Below, in pieces: positions 1 through 6,533 of a DNA stretch of 6,533 nt. This DNA is from a virus (lineage: Duplodnaviria; Heunggongvirae; Uroviricota; Caudoviricetes): IMG/VR virus record IMGVR_UViG_2693429508_000008. One strand, 5' to 3'. Both the position numbers and the translations under genes were made by a program. The notes under the pieces were generated by a model. The model ran no database searches. It saw only the letters and a list, made by a program, of their open reading frames with translations, and was not told the DNA's origin. Positions within the stretch are counted from its first letter, which is position 1. The number at the start of each line of letters is the position of its first letter.

Positions 1-33
1 GACAGTGCGATCCCGCCAGGCTTCAGGGGGTAA
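1..33 (+). CDS. 3' end of an upstream gene (partial; possibly the replication initiator partner of the DnaC-like protein)
   Basis: Frame 1 is open from the window edge to TAA at 31-33. That stop sits within or just after the GGGGG ribosome-binding site of the next gene (ATG 40). Only 10 codons are visible, so identity is a guess from synteny. Confidence 0.3.
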   Translation, partial: DSAIPPGFRG

Positions 34-39
34 CAGACC

Positions 40-786
40 ATGAAAAATATTGCGACAGGAGGCGTTCTGGAGCGTATCCGCAGACTGACCCCACCACATG
101 TAACCGCCCCATTCAGAACGGTTGCGGAGTGGCGCGAGTGGCAACTTGCTGAAGGCCAGAAACGTTGCGAGGAGATCAACCGCCTGAATCGTCAGTTGCG
201 GGTGGAAAAAATCCTGAACCGCTCCGGCATCCAGCCGTTGCACCGGAAGTGTTCGTTTGCGAATTACCGGGCGCAGAACGACGGTCAGCGACATGCACTG
301 AGTCAGGCGAAATCCATAGCTGACGAACTGATGACAGGCTGTACGAATTTTGTGTTCAGCGGTAAGCCCGGCACCGGAAAAAATCATCTTGCAGACGCGA
401 TTGGCAACCGGCTGATGGCGAAGGGGCGTAGCGTGATTATCGTCACCGTGTCCGATGTCATGAGCGTGTTGCATGAGAGCTACGACAACGGCAAATCCGG
501 TGAAAAATTTTTACAGGAGCTTTGTGGTGTTGACCTGCTGGTCCTGGATGAAATTGGCATGCAGCGGGATACGAAAAACGAGCAGGTGGTACTGAACCAG
601 ATTGTTGATCGCCGGACGGCATCGTTACGCGGTGTGGGGATGCTGACAAATATTAACCATGCAGCGATGAATACACTTCTCGGCGAGCGGGTGATGGATC
701 GCATGGTCATGAACGGCGGGCGCTGGGTGAATTTTAACTGGGAGAGCTGGCGTCCGAATGTTAGCCATTCGAGGGTTGTTAAGTAG
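40..786 (+). CDS. DnaC-like replicative helicase loader (phage replication protein, IstB/DnaC AAA+ family)
   Basis: 248-aa ORF with ribosome-binding site GGGGG about 8 nt upstream of ATG. Translation closely parallels E. coli DnaC along its whole length, including Walker A (FSGKPGTGKNHLA), Walker B (LLVLDEIG) and the C-terminal GERVMDRM motif. Confidence 0.9.
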   Translation: MKNIATGGVLERIRRLTPPHVTAPFRTVAEWREWQLAEGQKRCEEINRLNRQLRVEKILNRSGIQPLHRKCSFANYRAQNDGQRHALSQAKSIADELMTGCTNFVFSGKPGTGKNHLADAIGNRLMAKGRSVIIVTVSDVMSVLHESYDNGKSGEKFLQELCGVDLLVLDEIGMQRDTKNEQVVLNQIVDRRTASLRGVGMLTNINHAAMNTLLGERVMDRMVMNGGRWVNFNWESWRPNVSHSRVVK

Positions 787-800
787 TTTCAGGAGGATTT

Positions 801-1223
801 ATGGCGAAACCTTTTACTCCCGAACAGCGGGAAGAACTGAAGACGCGAATTGTGGAACTCGTGCATCAGGACGGTCGGGTCACGATTCGGCAGTTGTCAG
901 ATGAAACAGGTATCAGTCGTGCGTCTGTCGGTCGCTTATGCATAGAACTGGTCGCAAGTGGTGATGTATATAATTCTGGCTACGGCTTATTCCCGTCTGA
1001 ACAGGCTCGCAAGGACTGGCAAAGCGCCCGCAAAAAACTCTCGAGAGTAAAGGTGAGGAAACCGGTTGTTGTTGATCCGGACCTTATCTGGTCATTACCT
1101 GACGGAGAAATACGCCGCTACGACAGGCGCCTGAATATAATCTGTCGCGAGTGCCGGAAGAGCGAAGCTATGCAGCGTGTACTGGCTTTCTATCAGGGTA
1201 ATTTTCAGGAGGCGATACTGTGA
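801..1223 (+). CDS. Hypothetical phage protein, possible N-terminal winged-helix DNA-binding domain
   Basis: 140-aa ORF with strong AGGAGG ribosome-binding site 5 nt upstream of ATG 801, 14 nt after the dnaC-like stop. N-terminal segment TIRQLSDETGISRASVGRLCIELVASG is helix-turn-helix-like; the C-terminal half has a CRECRK motif. No family recognised. Confidence 0.6.
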   Translation: MAKPFTPEQREELKTRIVELVHQDGRVTIRQLSDETGISRASVGRLCIELVASGDVYNSGYGLFPSEQARKDWQSARKKLSRVKVRKPVVVDPDLIWSLPDGEIRRYDRRLNIICRECRKSEAMQRVLAFYQGNFQEAIL

Positions 1224-1637
1224 ATGAAATTAGCTATCAGGCTTCAATTACCGCTGGCATTCGCATCAAAGGAGAGGAGCATGGAAATAAAACCAGAAGA
1301 TGAGTTAAGCAATATCGTTTTATTTCCGGTAAAAGAGGATGACCCTCGTAATCAGGTTAATTTTCTTTATGAGCCATCGGAAAGACCATATTGCCATCAC
1401 GCCTCTGTACGGGTTGACGAAAAAGAGCGTCAGGTCCGCTGTAAAATCTGCGGTGCGGTTGTGGAGCCGTTTGACTGGATGCTCTCTGTGGCAAAAAGAG
1501 AAACCAGACTGGCAGATGATGTAAGGCTATTGCGCCAGGAGGAACAGGAAAGGCGGAGAAATATAGAAAAGCTGATACAGATTGAGCGTAACGCGAAAGC
1601 GCGGATACGCAGGGCGACAAAATCCAGAACTGAATAA
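1224..1637 (+). CDS. Hypothetical phage protein with a possible zinc-ribbon (CHH...CxxC) and a basic coiled-coil C-terminus
   Basis: 137-aa ORF; ATG 1224 directly abuts the upstream TGA (1221-1223) with AGGAGG 11 nt upstream. An alternative start at ATG 1281 (MEIKPEDE...) has GGAG 6 nt upstream. Contains C-H-H...C-K-I-C and an Arg/Glu-rich tail. No family recognised. Confidence 0.55.
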   Translation: MKLAIRLQLPLAFASKERSMEIKPEDELSNIVLFPVKEDDPRNQVNFLYEPSERPYCHHASVRVDEKERQVRCKICGAVVEPFDWMLSVAKRETRLADDVRLLRQEEQERRRNIEKLIQIERNAKARIRRATKSRTE

Positions 1638-1784
1638 TTAAATTTAGCACTGTTAAAAATTTAATCCTTAACCGGAGGGATTTCTGCACCCTCAAATCAT
1701 CAGGAGACCGCCCGAAAGGGCGGGGAGCAGTCACACATCTGTTTCCGATAGCCCCGTTCTAATGCTACACTCTTTGATATTTTT

Positions 1785-2471
1785 ATGACCCCAATAAACA
1801 TATTTATGACAGTTGCTGATTTCAAACGGCCCAAATTGGAGCTCCCAAACGGGGCAAACAAACTACTACTGCACTCTTGCTGTGCTCCATGTTCCGGTGA
1901 GGTGATGGAGGCGCTTCAGGCCTCGGGAATCGACTACACCATCTTTTTCTACAACCCGAACATTCATCCTCAGAAAGAGTATTTAATTCGTAAGGATGAG
2001 AATATTCGCTTTGCTGAACAACACGGCGTGCCGTTTATTGATGCTGATTACGACACAGACAACTGGTTTGAACGAGCCAAAGGAATGGAATGGGAGCCCG
2101 AACGAGGGATCCGTTGCACCATGTGTTTTGACATGCGTTTTGAGCGGACAGCGCTGTACGCCGCTGAAAATGGTTTCAGTGTGATCAGCAGTTCACTGGG
2201 CATTTCACGCTGGAAAAATATGCAGCAGGTTAACGACTGTGGGCGGCGAGCCGTCGCGCATTATCCGGGCATGGTGTACTGGGATTATAACTGGCGCAAG
2301 CAGGGCGGCTCGTCCCGTATGATTGAAATCAGCAAGCGCGAAAAATTCTATCAGCAGGAATATTGTGGCTGTGTGTATTCTCTGCGCGATACCAATCTAC
2401 ACCGCAAATCTCAGGGACGCCCTCTTATCAAAATTGGTCAACTCCACTACGGTAAAGAAGAGAAGGAGTGA
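1785..2471 (+). CDS. queH: QueH-like protein (DUF208; putative epoxyqueuosine reductase, tRNA queuosine biosynthesis)
   Basis: 228-aa ORF containing the [11 protein letters not shown] motif and further conserved Cys residues (CTMCFD, CGC) that I recognise as typical of DUF208/QueH. No obvious Shine-Dalgarno at ATG 1785 or the alternative ATG 1806, so the start is uncertain. Assignment is by motif recall, not by search. Confidence 0.7.
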
Positions 2472-2492
2472 TTTTATGGGGCACCTTTCTGA

Positions 2493-2522
2493 TTGATTTC
2501 ATATTGGCGAGGTAAGTAGAAT
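2493..2522 (+). promoter_or_regulatory. Candidate sigma70 promoter for the hok mRNA (-35 TTGATT 2493-2498, -10 TAGAAT 2517-2522, 18-bp spacer)
   Basis: Hexamers and spacing read directly from the sequence. The predicted start (about 2529) coincides with a 5' element complementary to the 3' end of the hok transcript. Confidence 0.4.
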
Positions 2523-2698
2523 GACTGCGGGTGCTTGAGGCTATCTGCTTCAGGCATGAACACCAAAAGGCAGATAGAGAAAAGCCCCAGTTAACATTAC
2601 GCGTCCGGCAAGACGCTTAACATTAATCTGAGGCCAATTTCATGCTTTGCACATGTAGGTTAGCCTCTTACATGCCGAAAGGCAAGGAGAAGCAGGCT

Positions 2699-2854
2699 AT
2701 GAAGCAGCAAAAGGCGATGTTAATCGCCCTGATCGTCATCTGTTTAACCGTCATAGTGACGGCACTGGTAACGAGGAAAGACCTCTGTGAGGTACGAATC
2801 CGAACCGGCCAGACGGAGGTCGCTGTCTTCGTAGACTACGAATCCAGGAAGTAA
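2699..2854 (+). CDS. hok: Hok/Gef-family type I toxin (small membrane-depolarising peptide), HokD/RelF-like
   Basis: 51-aa translation MKQQKAMLIALIVICLTVIVTALVTRKDLCEVRIRTGQTEVAVFVDYESRK has the Hok signature (hydrophobic helix, then TRK-LCE-R-R-G--EVA-F--YES-K). AAGGAGA ribosome-binding site at 2685-2691. The longer in-frame ORF from 2642 is probably leader sequence. Confidence 0.9.
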   Translation: MKQQKAMLIALIVICLTVIVTALVTRKDLCEVRIRTGQTEVAVFVDYESRK

Positions 2855-2932
2855 GAGTGACCGGGCGGGGAGCTGATCCCATCCCCGCCCACCTCTGATG
2901 TGTCAGGCATCCTCAACGCACCCGCACTTAAC

Positions 2933-2976
2933 CCGCCCATCGCTGTGATCTCTCAGCGTTTCGGCGGGTTTTTTGT
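2933..2976 (+). terminator. Rho-independent terminator at the 3' end of the hok transcript
   Basis: Composite stem CCCGCC (2933-2938)/GGCGGG (2964-2969) with inner stem CGCTG/CAGCG, followed by TTTTTTGTTGTTTATTT. Confidence 0.7.
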
Positions 2977-3103
2977 TGTTTATTTCCGGTGAATTTGATT
3001 CGCGCACCTTCGCAGATAGAATCGACTCACTTAAGTAGCGCGCAGGGAGAAGAGGGATGGACCCCGAACAGGGGAGAGCTATTTATCTGGAAGGATTCTG
3101 AAG

Positions 3104-3391
3104 ATGAAAATCGAAGAATTGCGTGAAATTTTTAGTGAAAATGGCCTCTATGCTGTGCGCGTTGAGAATGGAGCGATTGTCAGCCATTGCCGCATTAGAT
3201 GTTTGCAATCTCAACAAAGGAAGAGCGGTGCTGTGTTATTTTATTTTTGTAATGGACTTCTGACGGACGGTTTTATTTTGCGTGAGGACGAATTTGTCAC
3301 ATCATTACGGGTTTTGAAAGAGATTGGTTTTAAGGCTGGTTTTCTGCTTTTGCTGAAGAATAAACTCATCTACAATCTTGAGCAGGATTGA
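3104..3391 (+). CDS. Hypothetical small phage protein (95 aa)
   Basis: ORF with AAGGA 8 nt upstream of ATG 3104. Its stop TGA (3389-3391) lies 38 nt before the next gene's probable ATG at 3430. No family recognised. Confidence 0.5.
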   Translation: MKIEELREIFSENGLYAVRVENGAIVSHCRIRCLQSQQRKSGAVLFYFCNGLLTDGFILREDEFVTSLRVLKEIGFKAGFLLLLKNKLIYNLEQD

Positions 3392-3429
3392 ACTCCTGCT
3401 GTGTAACACCGTGCCACCGGAGAAAGCCG

Positions 3430-4229
3430 ATGGCACATATACAACTGGTCAAACAAACCTCTTCCGGATTACTTCTCCCGGCGACGCCGGAGAGTTGCGA
3501 TTTTCTGCATCAAATCAAAATAGGTGAGTGGATACACGCAGACTTTAAGCGTGTGTGTAACTACGCATTCCACAAGCGTTTTTTCAAACTCCTGCAACTG
3601 GGTTTCGATTACTGGACTCCGGTCGGTGGGGCGATCACGCCTCGCGAACGAAAACTGGTGTCCGGTTTCGTTGATTACCTGTGTGAATCAGTAGGCCGGG
3701 AACATACGCCAGCTCTGAGCGAAGCCGCAGAGCAATATCTGAATACAGTTGCGACACGCAGAACCAGTGATACGGCATTGCTAAAGTCGTTTGAGGCTTT
3801 CCGCGAGTGGGTAGCCATTCAGGCCGGATTTTACACCGAGCATTTTTATCCGGACGGTAGCCGTGGGTGTCGGGCGAAATCTATCGCGTTTGCGAATATG
3901 GACGAAACCGAGTTTCAGCAGGTTNCGCAGAGCAATATCTGAATACAGTTGCGACACGCAGAACCCGGGATACGGCATTGCTAAAGTCGTTTGAGGCTTT
4001 TCGCGAGTGGGTAACCATTCAGGCTGGATTTTACACCGAACATTTTTATCCGGACGGTAGCCGCGGGCGTCGGGCAAAATCCATCGCTTTTGCGAATATG
4101 GACGAAACCGAGTTTCAGCAGGTTTATAAATCTGTTCTGAATGTGCTGTGGAACTGGATTCTGTTCCGTAAATTTTCCTCTCCGGAACAAGTCGAAAATG
4201 TGGCCGCGCAGCTGCTGGAGTTTGCGTAA
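3430..4229 (+). pseudogene. Conserved lambdoid nin-region protein (DUF1367-like by recollection) with its frame broken by a ~200-bp tandem duplication containing an N
   Basis: Probable start ATG 3430 (GGAGA 6 nt upstream); the ORF-track start at 3388 is a TTG. The reading frame runs to 3942, then the same protein segment (AEQYLNTVATRR...DETEFQQV) recurs in a +2-shifted frame that continues to TAA 4227-4229. Removing one repeat copy would restore a single ORF of about 200 aa. Confidence 0.6.
3726..4124 (+). repeat. Imperfect direct tandem duplication, 2 x 199 bp (3726-3924 and 3926-4124), joined by ambiguous base N at 3925
   Basis: Copies aligned by eye: 11 mismatches in 199 bp (about 94% identity). 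Period is exactly 200 bp. Confidence 0.85.
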
Positions 4230-4519
4230 TGGTGGATTTACGTAAAGCGGCGCGGGGGCAGATGTGCACCGTCAGAATTCCTGGCTACTGCAATCACGAT
4301 CCGGAAACGTCTGTGCTGGCGCATTACCGACTGGCGGGAACGTGCGGAACAGCGATAAAGCCACACGATATGCAGGCAGCGATTGCCTGTAGCTCGTGCC
4401 ACGATTTAATCGACGGGCGGGTAAAAACCAGCGATTACACCAAAGAAGAATTACGCCTGATGCATGCAGAAGGTGTTTTTCGCACACAAGAAATCTGGAG
4501 AAAGGAGGGATATTTATGA
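4229..4519 (+). CDS. ybcO: YbcO-like protein (DUF1364; putative Zn-binding nuclease of lambdoid nin regions)
   Basis: 96-aa ORF. Start ATG 4229 overlaps the upstream stop (TAATG); GGAG 8 nt upstream. Translation MVDLRKAARG...CTVRIPGYCN...ETSVLAH...IACSSCHD matches my recollection of E. coli DLP12 YbcO in length and Cys/His pattern. Confidence 0.75.
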   Translation: MVDLRKAARGQMCTVRIPGYCNHDPETSVLAHYRLAGTCGTAIKPHDMQAAIACSSCHDLIDGRVKTSDYTKEELRLMHAEGVFRTQEIWRKEGYL

Positions 4520-5070
4520 TTTACCCAACGAATACAGGAAAAAGCGGAGAACACCTTCGTCTCACCACGCTGGAAAGTGTCTGGATTCAGGGAAAACTAC
4601 GTATGTGGGGGCGCTGGTCGTATATTGGTGGCGGTAAGACGGGGAATATGTTTAACCTGATGTTGACCTCTAAAAAGCTGACAAAAACGGCAATTAACGA
4701 GGCGCTCCGGAGGATGAAAAAAGCAGGTCTGAACAAGTCTGAACTTGAGGCTTTTTTGCGGGATATGATTAACGGTAAGCAAAAGAGCTGGCTGGCGCAT
4801 TGTACTGATGCAGAGGCGTTATGTATTGATCGGGTCATAAGTGAGGTGCTGGCAGAGCATCCAGGATTGATTAGCGTCCTTCGGCAACGGTATGAGGGGC
4901 GGGGGATGACCAAACGCAAAATGGCTGAACTGCTGAATGATGCACACCCGAAATGGAGTTTAAGAACCTGTGAAAGACGCATTGAGCATTGGCTAAAGGT
5001 GGCAGAATTTATTTTGTACAAACCAATGGTTATGGCTTTTGGTATAGAGAAAAAAGTTATTGCTTTTTGA
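4516..5070 (+). CDS. Putative late-gene antitermination protein Q (Q-like, non-lambda type); assignment by synteny and weak motif resemblance
   Basis: 184-aa ORF. Start ATG 4516 overlaps the ybcO-like stop (ATGA) with AAGGAGGG 6 nt upstream; the longer ORF from 4396 is rejected. Position (last gene before a terminator and tRNA cluster) and an N-terminal RMWGRW motif resemble the E. coli prophage Q family. Not verified. Confidence 0.5.
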   Translation: MIYPTNTGKSGEHLRLTTLESVWIQGKLRMWGRWSYIGGGKTGNMFNLMLTSKKLTKTAINEALRRMKKAGLNKSELEAFLRDMINGKQKSWLAHCTDAEALCIDRVISEVLAEHPGLISVLRQRYEGRGMTKRKMAELLNDAHPKWSLRTCERRIEHWLKVAEFILYKPMVMAFGIEKKVIAF

Positions 5071-5151
5071 CGTAAAAACTGCTTCAATTCTTGTACGCTT
5101 CGCAAAGCTGTACCGCGAGGCGAATAGCAGACATGGACATTTGAAAGAGCC

Positions 5152-5175
5152 CGCTTTATGCGGGTTTTTTTATAC
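5152..5175 (+). terminator. Rho-independent terminator downstream of the Q-like gene (candidate tR'-like site)
   Basis: Stem AGCCCGC (5152-5158)/GCGGGTT (5164-5170) with a 5-nt loop, followed by a run of 7 T. Confidence 0.65.
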
Positions 5176-5221
5176 CTGAAAAACGGCACAGGACGTTAAA
5201 CGTGCTGGTGGTCAGATGAGT

Positions 5222-5250
5222 TTGCAGATGTGATGACATATGGTTATTAT
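5222..5250 (+). promoter_or_regulatory. Weak candidate promoter for the tRNA cluster (-35 TTGCAG 5222-5227, -10 TATTAT 5245-5250, 17-bp spacer)
   Basis: Hexamers read from sequence; the -10 ends 10 nt before tRNA position 1. The -35 is a poor match. Confidence 0.3.
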
Positions 5251-5259
5251 TCTGCCTCC

Positions 5260-5336
5260 GGCCCTTTAGCTCAGTTGGTCAGAGCGAGCGACTCATAATC
5301 GCCAGGTCGCTGGTTCAAGTCCAGCAAGGGCCACCA
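5260..5336 (+). tRNA. tRNA with CAU anticodon (Met or lysidine-type Ile2; likely Ile by analogy with lambdoid-phage ileZ)
   Basis: Cloverleaf folded by hand: acceptor GGCCCTT/AAGGGCC, D arm GCTC...GAGC, anticodon loop CTCATAA, T arm GCTGG-TTCAAGT-CCAGC, encoded CCA at 5334-5336. Resembles E. coli ileX. Confidence 0.85.
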
Positions 5337-5337
5337 A

Positions 5338-5411
5338 CCACCACTAGCTCATCCGGATAGAGCATCAACCTTCTAAGTTGACGGTGCGAGGTTCGAGTCC
5401 TCGGTGGTGGG
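5338..5411 (+). tRNA. tRNA-Arg (anticodon UCU, reads AGA)
   Basis: Acceptor CCACCAC/GTGGTGG, anticodon stem TCAAC/GTTGA with loop CTTCTAA, T arm CGAGG-TTCGAGT-CCTCG, discriminator G5411. The 3' CCA is not encoded (CCT follows). Starts 1 nt after the preceding tRNA. Confidence 0.8.
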
Positions 5412-5416
5412 CCTGC

Positions 5417-5492
<76 letters not shown>

Positions 5493-5495
5493 TAT

Positions 5496-5570
<75 letters not shown>

Positions 5571-6183
5571 GCGAGATTTGAGACGAAGGTTGTTATTTGC
5601 ACTGACACAATATTGTGTGGGAATGTCTGACTCCTTACCATCTCCTGTTCTGTGATGTTGTTTTGTTGCAGTTCCAGTGCTCTTTTTTCAGCACCAGAAT
5701 GGTGCATTGTCGGTCAGGTTACGTAGTGAACCTCTGGCAGGGGACTGATGATTCATCATTCTGGTGTTGTAAATATCTCTTCGGACAACTTACAAAATAT
5801 TCTAAGCAAACCCCGGGAACACACTCTTAACTGCCTTGGCTGGCGGTTTTTTGTACAGTGCTCGGTATGTGTGAGCTGGAAATCAGATTTTGCATGGACT
5901 GGAATCATGCTGTTATTTAGGGGCGAAGAACTGGCTTTTTCTTCCGCCTTCTCACCAGTAACGATTAGAAAAATAATGAAATGCCCCCCTCCGGGGAGGA
6001 GGACCGTAGAAAAAAGGACCCGCCAGCAAAAACATTGGGGATGAACAGCTTTCGCTACTCAGATTGCTGGCGGGTAAAGTTCCTCATGAATTAAGAATGC
6101 TACGCGATCTTTTTTAATGGAAATGAAAATTATTGTCAATTAGTCGTGCGTGTTTTTTCATACAATATTGGTAAAGGTGATTC

Positions 6184-6219
6184 AGGCCATCAGAGTTTTG
6201 CTGATGGCCTTTTTTCTTT
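6184..6219 (+). terminator. Strong rho-independent terminator
   Basis: Perfect 10-bp stem AGGCCATCAG (6184-6193)/CTGATGGCCT (6201-6210) with loop AGTTTTG, followed by TTTTTTCTTT. Confidence 0.75.
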
Positions 6220-6244
6220 CCGATAGCACAGGTCTGTCGGGGGG

Positions 6245-6522
6245 NNNNNNNNNNNNNNNNNNNNNNNNNNNNNNNNNNNNNNNNNNNNNNNNNNNNNNNN
6301 NNNNNNNNNNNNNNNNNNNNNNNNNNNNNNNNNNNNNNNNNNNNNNNNNNNNNNNNNNNNNNNNNNNNNNNNNNNNNNNNNNNNNNNNNNNNNNNNNNNN
6401 NNNNNNNNNNNNNNNNNNNNNNNNNNNNNNNNNNNNNNNNNNNNNNNNNNNNNNNNNNNNNNNNNNNNNNNNNNNNNNNNNNNNNNNNNNNNNNNNNNNN
6501 NNNNNNNNNNNNNNNNNNNNNN
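6245..6522. other. Assembly/scaffold gap (278 N)
   Basis: Continuous run of n characters; only 11 defined bases follow (6523-6533). Confidence 0.99.
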
Positions 6523-6533
6523 GGCTTCTGACT

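Follow-up and report, generated by a model that had tools for sequence, protein, structure and literature searches.

False segmental duplications in genome assemblies were reportedly described by Kelley and Salzberg in 2010. False duplications are recognized by a gap separating the members of the duplicated pair and by the presence of haplotype-specific sequence (Ko et al., 2022, Genome Biol 23:205, PMC9516828). In heterotype false duplications, known from assemblies of vertebrate genomes, a single scaffold retains both diverged versions of a locus with a gap between them, each copy carries sequence specific to its version, and genes are spuriously gained or broken (PMC9516828). The locus studied here resembles this class in each of these respects. 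However, the published cases concern the haplotypes of diploid animals, whereas in the present, haploid organism paralogs carried by two prophages most likely account for the two versions. The present case is also very small, at 199 bp with a gap of one N.

A second related class consists of joins with an unmerged overlap, as associated with SSPACE, GapFiller, ALLPATHS-LG and Meraculous. According to the SSPACE manual, a single n denotes contigs that are predicted to overlap and for which the overlap was not found. A literature search for this explicit SSPACE convention returned indirect statements only (PMC5368935, PMC3158087, PMC5902842, PMC5320598, PMC3446322). Several scaffolders are documented to output negative gaps, in which contigs connected through read pairs have a predicted overlap (PMC5368935, PMC3158087), and insertions of a single N have been described as pointing to anomalies of construction (PMC5902842).

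The affected gene itself is an ordinary member of the DUF1367 (PF07105) genes of lambdoid prophages, found at the ybcN position of the nin region; in the record of phage Rac (MN652886) the gene is named irsA. It shares with this family the conserved order hok/sok, DUF1367, YbcO/DUF1364, Q-like DUF1133 and tRNAs, and it gives a full-length profile match once one copy of the repeat is removed. It differs by its interruption alone, which we read as artefactual.

The window, by which we mean the whole stretch of 6,533 nucleotides that was analysed, was found to be the entire record CXDS01000177.1 (6533 bp) of assembly GCA_001259615.1, the exact 170-aa protein of the interrupted gene being on record once. 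CXDS00000000 is Shigella sonnei Sh5827, a lineage I member of the Holt et al. 2012 collection (PMC5447701, Table 1), and the window is a short-read draft scaffold. Judged from sequence comparisons, its 200-bp tandem duplication is very probably an assembly artefact combining two alleles, and not a feature of the genome.

The prophage region and its scaffold pieces

The neighbourhood of the repeat was an ordinary lambdoid prophage early-right (nin) region. The features of the window are listed below.

1..3924, + strand: piece 1, the left contig, lambdoid prophage early-right region, with the early-right genes DnaC/YdaV-like ATPase, then DUF977; collinear with the FDAARGOS_944 prophage and matched by IMG/VR record L029
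1785-2471: QueH, epoxyqueuosine reductase homologue (PF02677, E=2e-65)
2529-2704: sok RNA (Rfam, 117 bits)
2699-2854: Hok/Gef peptide, giving a complete hok/sok type I toxin-antitoxin module at 2529-2854
3104-3391: 95-aa ORF adjoining DUF1367 upstream
3430..3942, + strand: apparent truncated DUF1367 gene, 170 aa (Pfam PF07105 positions 1-165/198, E=5e-76)
3726..3924, + strand: copy A, the allele native to this prophage lineage
3925, no strand: single N, read as a scaffold join without sequence support; the only single N in the record
3926..4124, + strand: copy B, another natural allele of this gene segment, and a common one; begins piece 2
3926..6244, + strand: piece 2, the right contig, with the DUF1367 3' part to 4229, YbcO, DUF1133 and four tRNAs
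4229-4519: YbcO/DUF1364 (Pfam)
4516-5070: DUF1133 Q-like antiterminator (Pfam)
5260-5570: four tRNAs with anticodons CAT, TCT, TGT and TCC (tRNA search)
6245..6522, no strand: scaffold gap written as 278 N; the 11 bases left after it (6523-6533) lie in the holin gene

The closest complete relative was the prophage of E. coli FDAARGOS_944 (L001), which is collinear over 1-6244 and about 200 bp shorter. In the flanks of the repeat, 12 mismatches to this prophage were counted in 5,365 bases (4 in 680-3924 and 8 in 4125-6244). The mismatches of the left piece were distributed very unevenly: 107 of the 111 clustered at 35-678, in the ydaV/DnaC-like ATPase gene, and the next 3.2 kb held 4. The edge of this divergent patch forms a sharp mosaic (recombination) boundary, which is typical of lambdoid phages.

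Two other features of the region were recorded. QueH, a tRNA-modification enzyme, is present as a phage moron upstream of the four-tRNA cluster. The 95-aa ORF at 3104-3391 had zero matches in the Pfam scan; the precomputed annotation of CXDS01000177.1 assigns it to PF27490 (Rem), probably from a newer Pfam model.

The right end of the window was also informative about how the scaffold was built. In L001, L009, L010, L012, L062 and L067, six relatives, the flanks of the 278-N run are separated by 148-149 bp, indicating that the length of the run is a size estimate from read pairs and not the real spacing. The original prediction had taken the N gap beginning at 6245 as a sign of a draft assembly, and this holds in the refined form of a size-estimated gap. 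Database masking was considered as another source of the N runs and rejected, given the same discrepancy in length and the fact that CXDS01000177.1 itself has the runs. The holin CDS of L001 begins 7 bp past the left flank of the gap. The gap covers the start of a class II holin gene, and the terminal GGCTTCTGACT, 11 bases lying inside that gene, is an oddly tiny end piece for a scaffold.

A tandem repeat with a single N inside the DUF1367 gene

The repeat was analysed with Tandem Repeats Finder and by direct comparison. The program reported one array, at 3726-4124, with a period of 200, 2.0 copies, 94% matches, zero indels and a score of 712. When the direct repeats 3726-3924 (copy A) and 3926-4124 (copy B), each of 199 bp, were compared directly, 11 mismatches were found, corresponding to 94.5% identity. 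The N at 3925 was the sole single N of the window and sat precisely between the two copies. Outside both copies, homology ended sharply on the left and on the right. The junction as deposited reads ...CAGCAGGTT-x-CGCAGAGCAA..., where x is base 3925 (N); its copy-B side is also given as CGCAGAGC. The position equivalent to 3925 is a T in relatives.

The 11 differences between the copies fell in 10 codons, of which 7 were changed synonymously and 3 non-synonymously. Such a mainly synonymous pattern is as expected between two functional alleles. The SNPs formed a cluster at 3766-3888, and the duplicated block consists of this cluster plus SNP-free margins of 40 and 36 bases. An antisense ORF of 162 aa (3781-4269) crosses both copies and the N; its length depends on what we consider a false join.

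The effect of the repeat on the gene was then followed in the reading frames. The true start of the DUF1367 gene is the ATG at 3430, according to the RefSeq annotation of the collinear FDAARGOS_944 prophage. The 170-aa frame from this start runs through copy A and the N, and the frameshift-induced stop falls within copy B. The gene calls of CXDS01000177.1 are 3430-3942 (170 aa) and 3978-4229 (83 aa). A look-up of the exact 120-aa product of ORF 3867-4229 gave zero matches, since the record places the start of that gene at 3978. The 5' fragment matched positions 1-165 of the 198 of the PF07105 profile with 255 bits and the 3' fragment matched positions 99-198 with 153 bits, both above the gathering cut-off of 25 bits. 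Together the two fragments span the full profile, with about 67 profile positions encoded twice. When either copy A or copy B was removed together with the N, an uninterrupted ORF of 600 bp was restored. Its 199 aa equal the RefSeq homologue WP_000940336.1 in length, and the restored versions differ from it at 2-3 residues. The real locus should hold one intact 600-bp, 199-aa DUF1367 gene.

These results bear out the structural part of the original prediction. It had described two 199-bp copies, about 94% identical and one ambiguous base apart, which both methods confirmed. The three peptide differences it gave between the copies (S/R, A/T and C/R) were all correct, and the two ORFs into which it saw the gene split, 3388-3942 and 3867-4229, are both present, with the DUF1367 gene broken.

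The same structure could in principle have arisen in the genome. Illegitimate or unequal recombination between two lambdoid prophages of one genome could have joined an A-type gene at 3924/3925 to a B-type gene at 3726, out of register, giving a genuine hetero-allelic partial duplication. The DUF1367 gene would then be a real pseudogene, and the N would be merely an uncalled base. However, such an event needs a non-homologous junction, and microhomology was not visible at 3721-3730 or at 3920-3930. It also needs the only single N of the record to fall on the junction by coincidence.

Two natural alleles, single-copy relatives and record ends

Both copies were compared with single-copy versions of the locus. 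Copy A differed from the complete, collinear prophage L001 at 1 of 199 positions and from the single-copy IMG/VR records L029, L009, L104 and L098 at none. This allele is rare in complete E. coli genomes, where only FDAARGOS_943 and FDAARGOS_944 reach 99.5%. Copy B, on the other hand, had 10 mismatches in 199 to L001, where 0.45 would be expected at the rate of the flanks (Poisson P=6e-11). It was 100% identical to E. coli E7-1N7, reached at least 99% in 86 complete genomes and had 0 mismatches to 7 single-copy IMG/VR records. Each copy thus equals a separately existing version of the single-copy locus, as is characteristic of false duplications.

The flanks were even closer to a single-copy relative than the copies are to each other. 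The single-copy record L009 was 100% identical to the window over 3082-3924 (843 bp) and over 4125-5203 (1079 bp), which means that, relative to L009, the window is a known single-copy sequence with "N + 199 bp" inserted. With flanks identical to those of L009, a duplication would need to be very recent and its copies should be identical, yet they differ at 11 positions. In a genuine duplication the divergence of the copies should be commensurate with that of the flanks; here it was 11 in 199 against 0 over 843 + 1079 bp. Moreover, all 11 differences exactly reproduce an already existing allele. Duplication in situ followed by divergence was rejected, given the identity of the flanks to a single-copy relative and the fact that 11 of 11 differences recreate an existing allele. 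A variant of the genuine event, in which an A-A duplication was formed and a B-type paralog later converted the second copy, would yield that allele, but it requires two rare events during a time in which the flanks gained zero substitutions.

A-type and B-type prophages were identical over 3697-3765 and from 3889 to beyond 5200, with SNP clusters at 3652-3696 and 3766-3888. The single-copy record L079 carries a B-type patch of 16 SNPs, at 3652-3888, in an otherwise A-like background. In the first of the two clusters, the B-type bases, as in L061 and L079, are 3652G, 3658C, 3663T, 3684C and 3696T. The patch gives DUF1367 a mosaic structure resembling that left by gene conversion and creates an ambiguity for assembly. 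The marked mosaicism of lambdoid prophages, seen in this patch and in the ydaV-like patch at 35-678, does lend some plausibility to recombination as the origin of the repeat, as does the existence of co-resident paralogs: the DUF1367 gene is present twice in 46 of the 1,331 complete E. coli genomes.

If the junction were real, a defined and reproducible form of it might be found elsewhere. The original prediction had proposed a comparison with complete genomes. With an 842-base query against the 1,331 complete E. coli genomes that have the gene, the best matches listed showed two overlapping pieces falling onto 600-642 bp, which is the single-copy layout, and the junction was in none of those listed. 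The FDAARGOS_944 prophage, for example, has one 600-bp DUF1367 gene with a start equivalent to 3430. A 119-base query centred on the junction gave solely permuted two-piece matches spanning 199 bp. A shared 32-mer was represented in the genome collection by one E. ruysiae single copy only. All 8 phage records were single-copy, and so were all of the approximately 100 IMG/VR records with the segment except L101. A pattern of the junction with 0-4 free bases allowed had zero matches in the genome, viral and metagenome collections. As positive controls, the junction pattern matched the window itself, and both half-patterns were present in 83 of the 106 fetched loci. The junction base is N in the one record that has it, and the junction with a defined base was absent from all collections searched, which argues against a genuine event. 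Closed and independent assemblies of the locus showed single-copy layouts only and no junction, as expected of a false duplication.

The exception among the IMG/VR records, L101 (IMGVR_UViG_2690316210_000010), has a different arrangement. At 5346-11300 it contains three serial DUF1367-YbcO-Q units with a period of about 2,180 bp, which carry the 199-bp segment as alleles A, A and B. A single N is located at 8772, and the record ends within the third unit. Modules of the nin region may genuinely be arranged in tandem here, or the array may be a scaffolding artefact of the same kind on a larger scale.

The ends of related draft records were also compared with the boundaries of the N runs. L029 matches 1-3924 at 99.85% and ends precisely at the base equivalent to 3924. 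On the other side, L061 is 100% identical to 3926-5193, and L079 and L010 each show 2 mismatches over 3926-6244; one end of L010 is the exact equivalent of 6244. Both N boundaries of the window thus match record ends in independent drafts to the base. This coincidence is as expected if the breaks are set by the repeat structure of the assembly graph and not by a recombination junction. For a genuine duplication, the break of the sibling assembly L029 at the same base is difficult to explain, since it points to a property of the graph. The repeat also shows what is found in false duplications, an undetermined base between the copies on one draft WGS scaffold. Taken with the missing microhomology, the position of the N and the identity of the flanks to L009, these results make a genuine duplication extremely unlikely.

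The original prediction had proposed that an assembly artefact probably merged two alleles, and that the copies were alleles and not a fresh duplication. Both proposals are supported: the former by the N at the junction, the uniqueness of the junction, the contrast between flanks and copies, the occurrence of both alleles elsewhere and the record ends, and the latter by the exact identity of each copy to a single-copy allele together with the flanks of L009.

A possible assembly route and its consequences

If the duplication is an artefact of assembly, the following route would account for it. The sample would have held two versions of DUF1367, allele A native to the prophage and allele B, which is common in related lambdoid prophages. 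The left contig would have ended after allele A, and the right contig would have started with allele B. Read pairs would have joined the two contigs. With 11 mismatches in their 199-bp overlap, the contigs would not have been merged, and a scaffolder or gap-filler may have placed them one after the other with a minimal gap of one N. A spurious tandem duplication of 200 bp would result, and with it a frameshift and two gene fragments that are equally false.

The two alleles most likely come from two co-resident prophages of one genome, a source that fits the sequence comparisons best. Alternatively, the same artefact may have formed with allele B supplied by a mixed or contaminated sample containing two strains or sub-populations. 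Both alleles are natural and the flanks of A-type and B-type prophages are identical, so that a minority strain would give the same graph structure, and contaminated samples are among the reported failures of the pipeline (PMC5320598). However, Sh5827 comes from a curated single-colony phylogenomic collection, and Shigella and E. coli commonly carry several lambdoid prophages, with two DUF1367 genes in the 46 complete genomes mentioned above. The break of L029 at the same base is also explained more easily by a shared two-prophage architecture than by repeated contamination. We consider a mixed sample very unlikely. With two co-resident prophages as the preferred source, pieces 1 and 2 may either come from the same prophage or form a chimera of two prophages; both fit, as A-type and B-type prophages do not differ in the right flank.

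The accession series and the originating collection suggest that the assembly was made with a Velvet/SSPACE/GapFiller pipeline. The Sanger pipeline for such data relies on Velvet, SSPACE and GapFiller, which have been termed greedy tools capable of false joins (PMC5320598). GapFiller extends both edges of a gap base by base and closes it only where the extended ends share 10 nt or more (PMC3446322). The N at 3925 was presumably written by a scaffolder or by a gap-filler. In the Velvet-based pipeline, k is 66-90% of the read length (PMC5320598), and for short reads the SNP-free margins of 40 and 36 bases could be approximately k-1. A bubble-arm model of the de Bruijn type in its pure form, with one k, was also considered and gave an approximate fit only, the margins of 40 and 36 being unequal.

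Other single-N joins in related draft records were inspected for the same structure. In L010, 1-540 and 1281-1820 are second copies of each other (540 bp at 99.6%), with an N at 851. In L012, 3788-4112 and 4944-5268 (325 bp) are 99.4% identical; this repeat ends exactly at an N, and the two single Ns of the record, at 3687 and 4113, bracket a piece of 425 bp. L009 has a second copy of a segment around the N at 5532. The second copies in L010, L012 and L009 all concern the region downstream of the tRNA cluster. The window is like other joins with an unmerged overlap in having a single N, and L010 and L012 also have second copies nearby. It differs in that an exact tandem overlap at the N was found in the window alone and at none of the other single-N joins examined in the related drafts. 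Together with L101, these records suggest that false duplications at single-N joins arise systematically when this part of the prophage is assembled in drafts.

The finding concerns data quality alone. An intact prophage gene appears as two fragments, and 200 spurious bases are added to the record. Artefacts of this kind also yield false "tandem duplications" in automated scans. They could be recognized by a simple filter, namely a single N between near-identical direct repeats, each arm of which equals a different natural allele. For the DUF1367 family, there is nothing biologically new in the interrupted gene. For Shigella, in which gene decay is a research theme, such artefacts are a sensitive matter, as they inflate the counts of pseudogenes.
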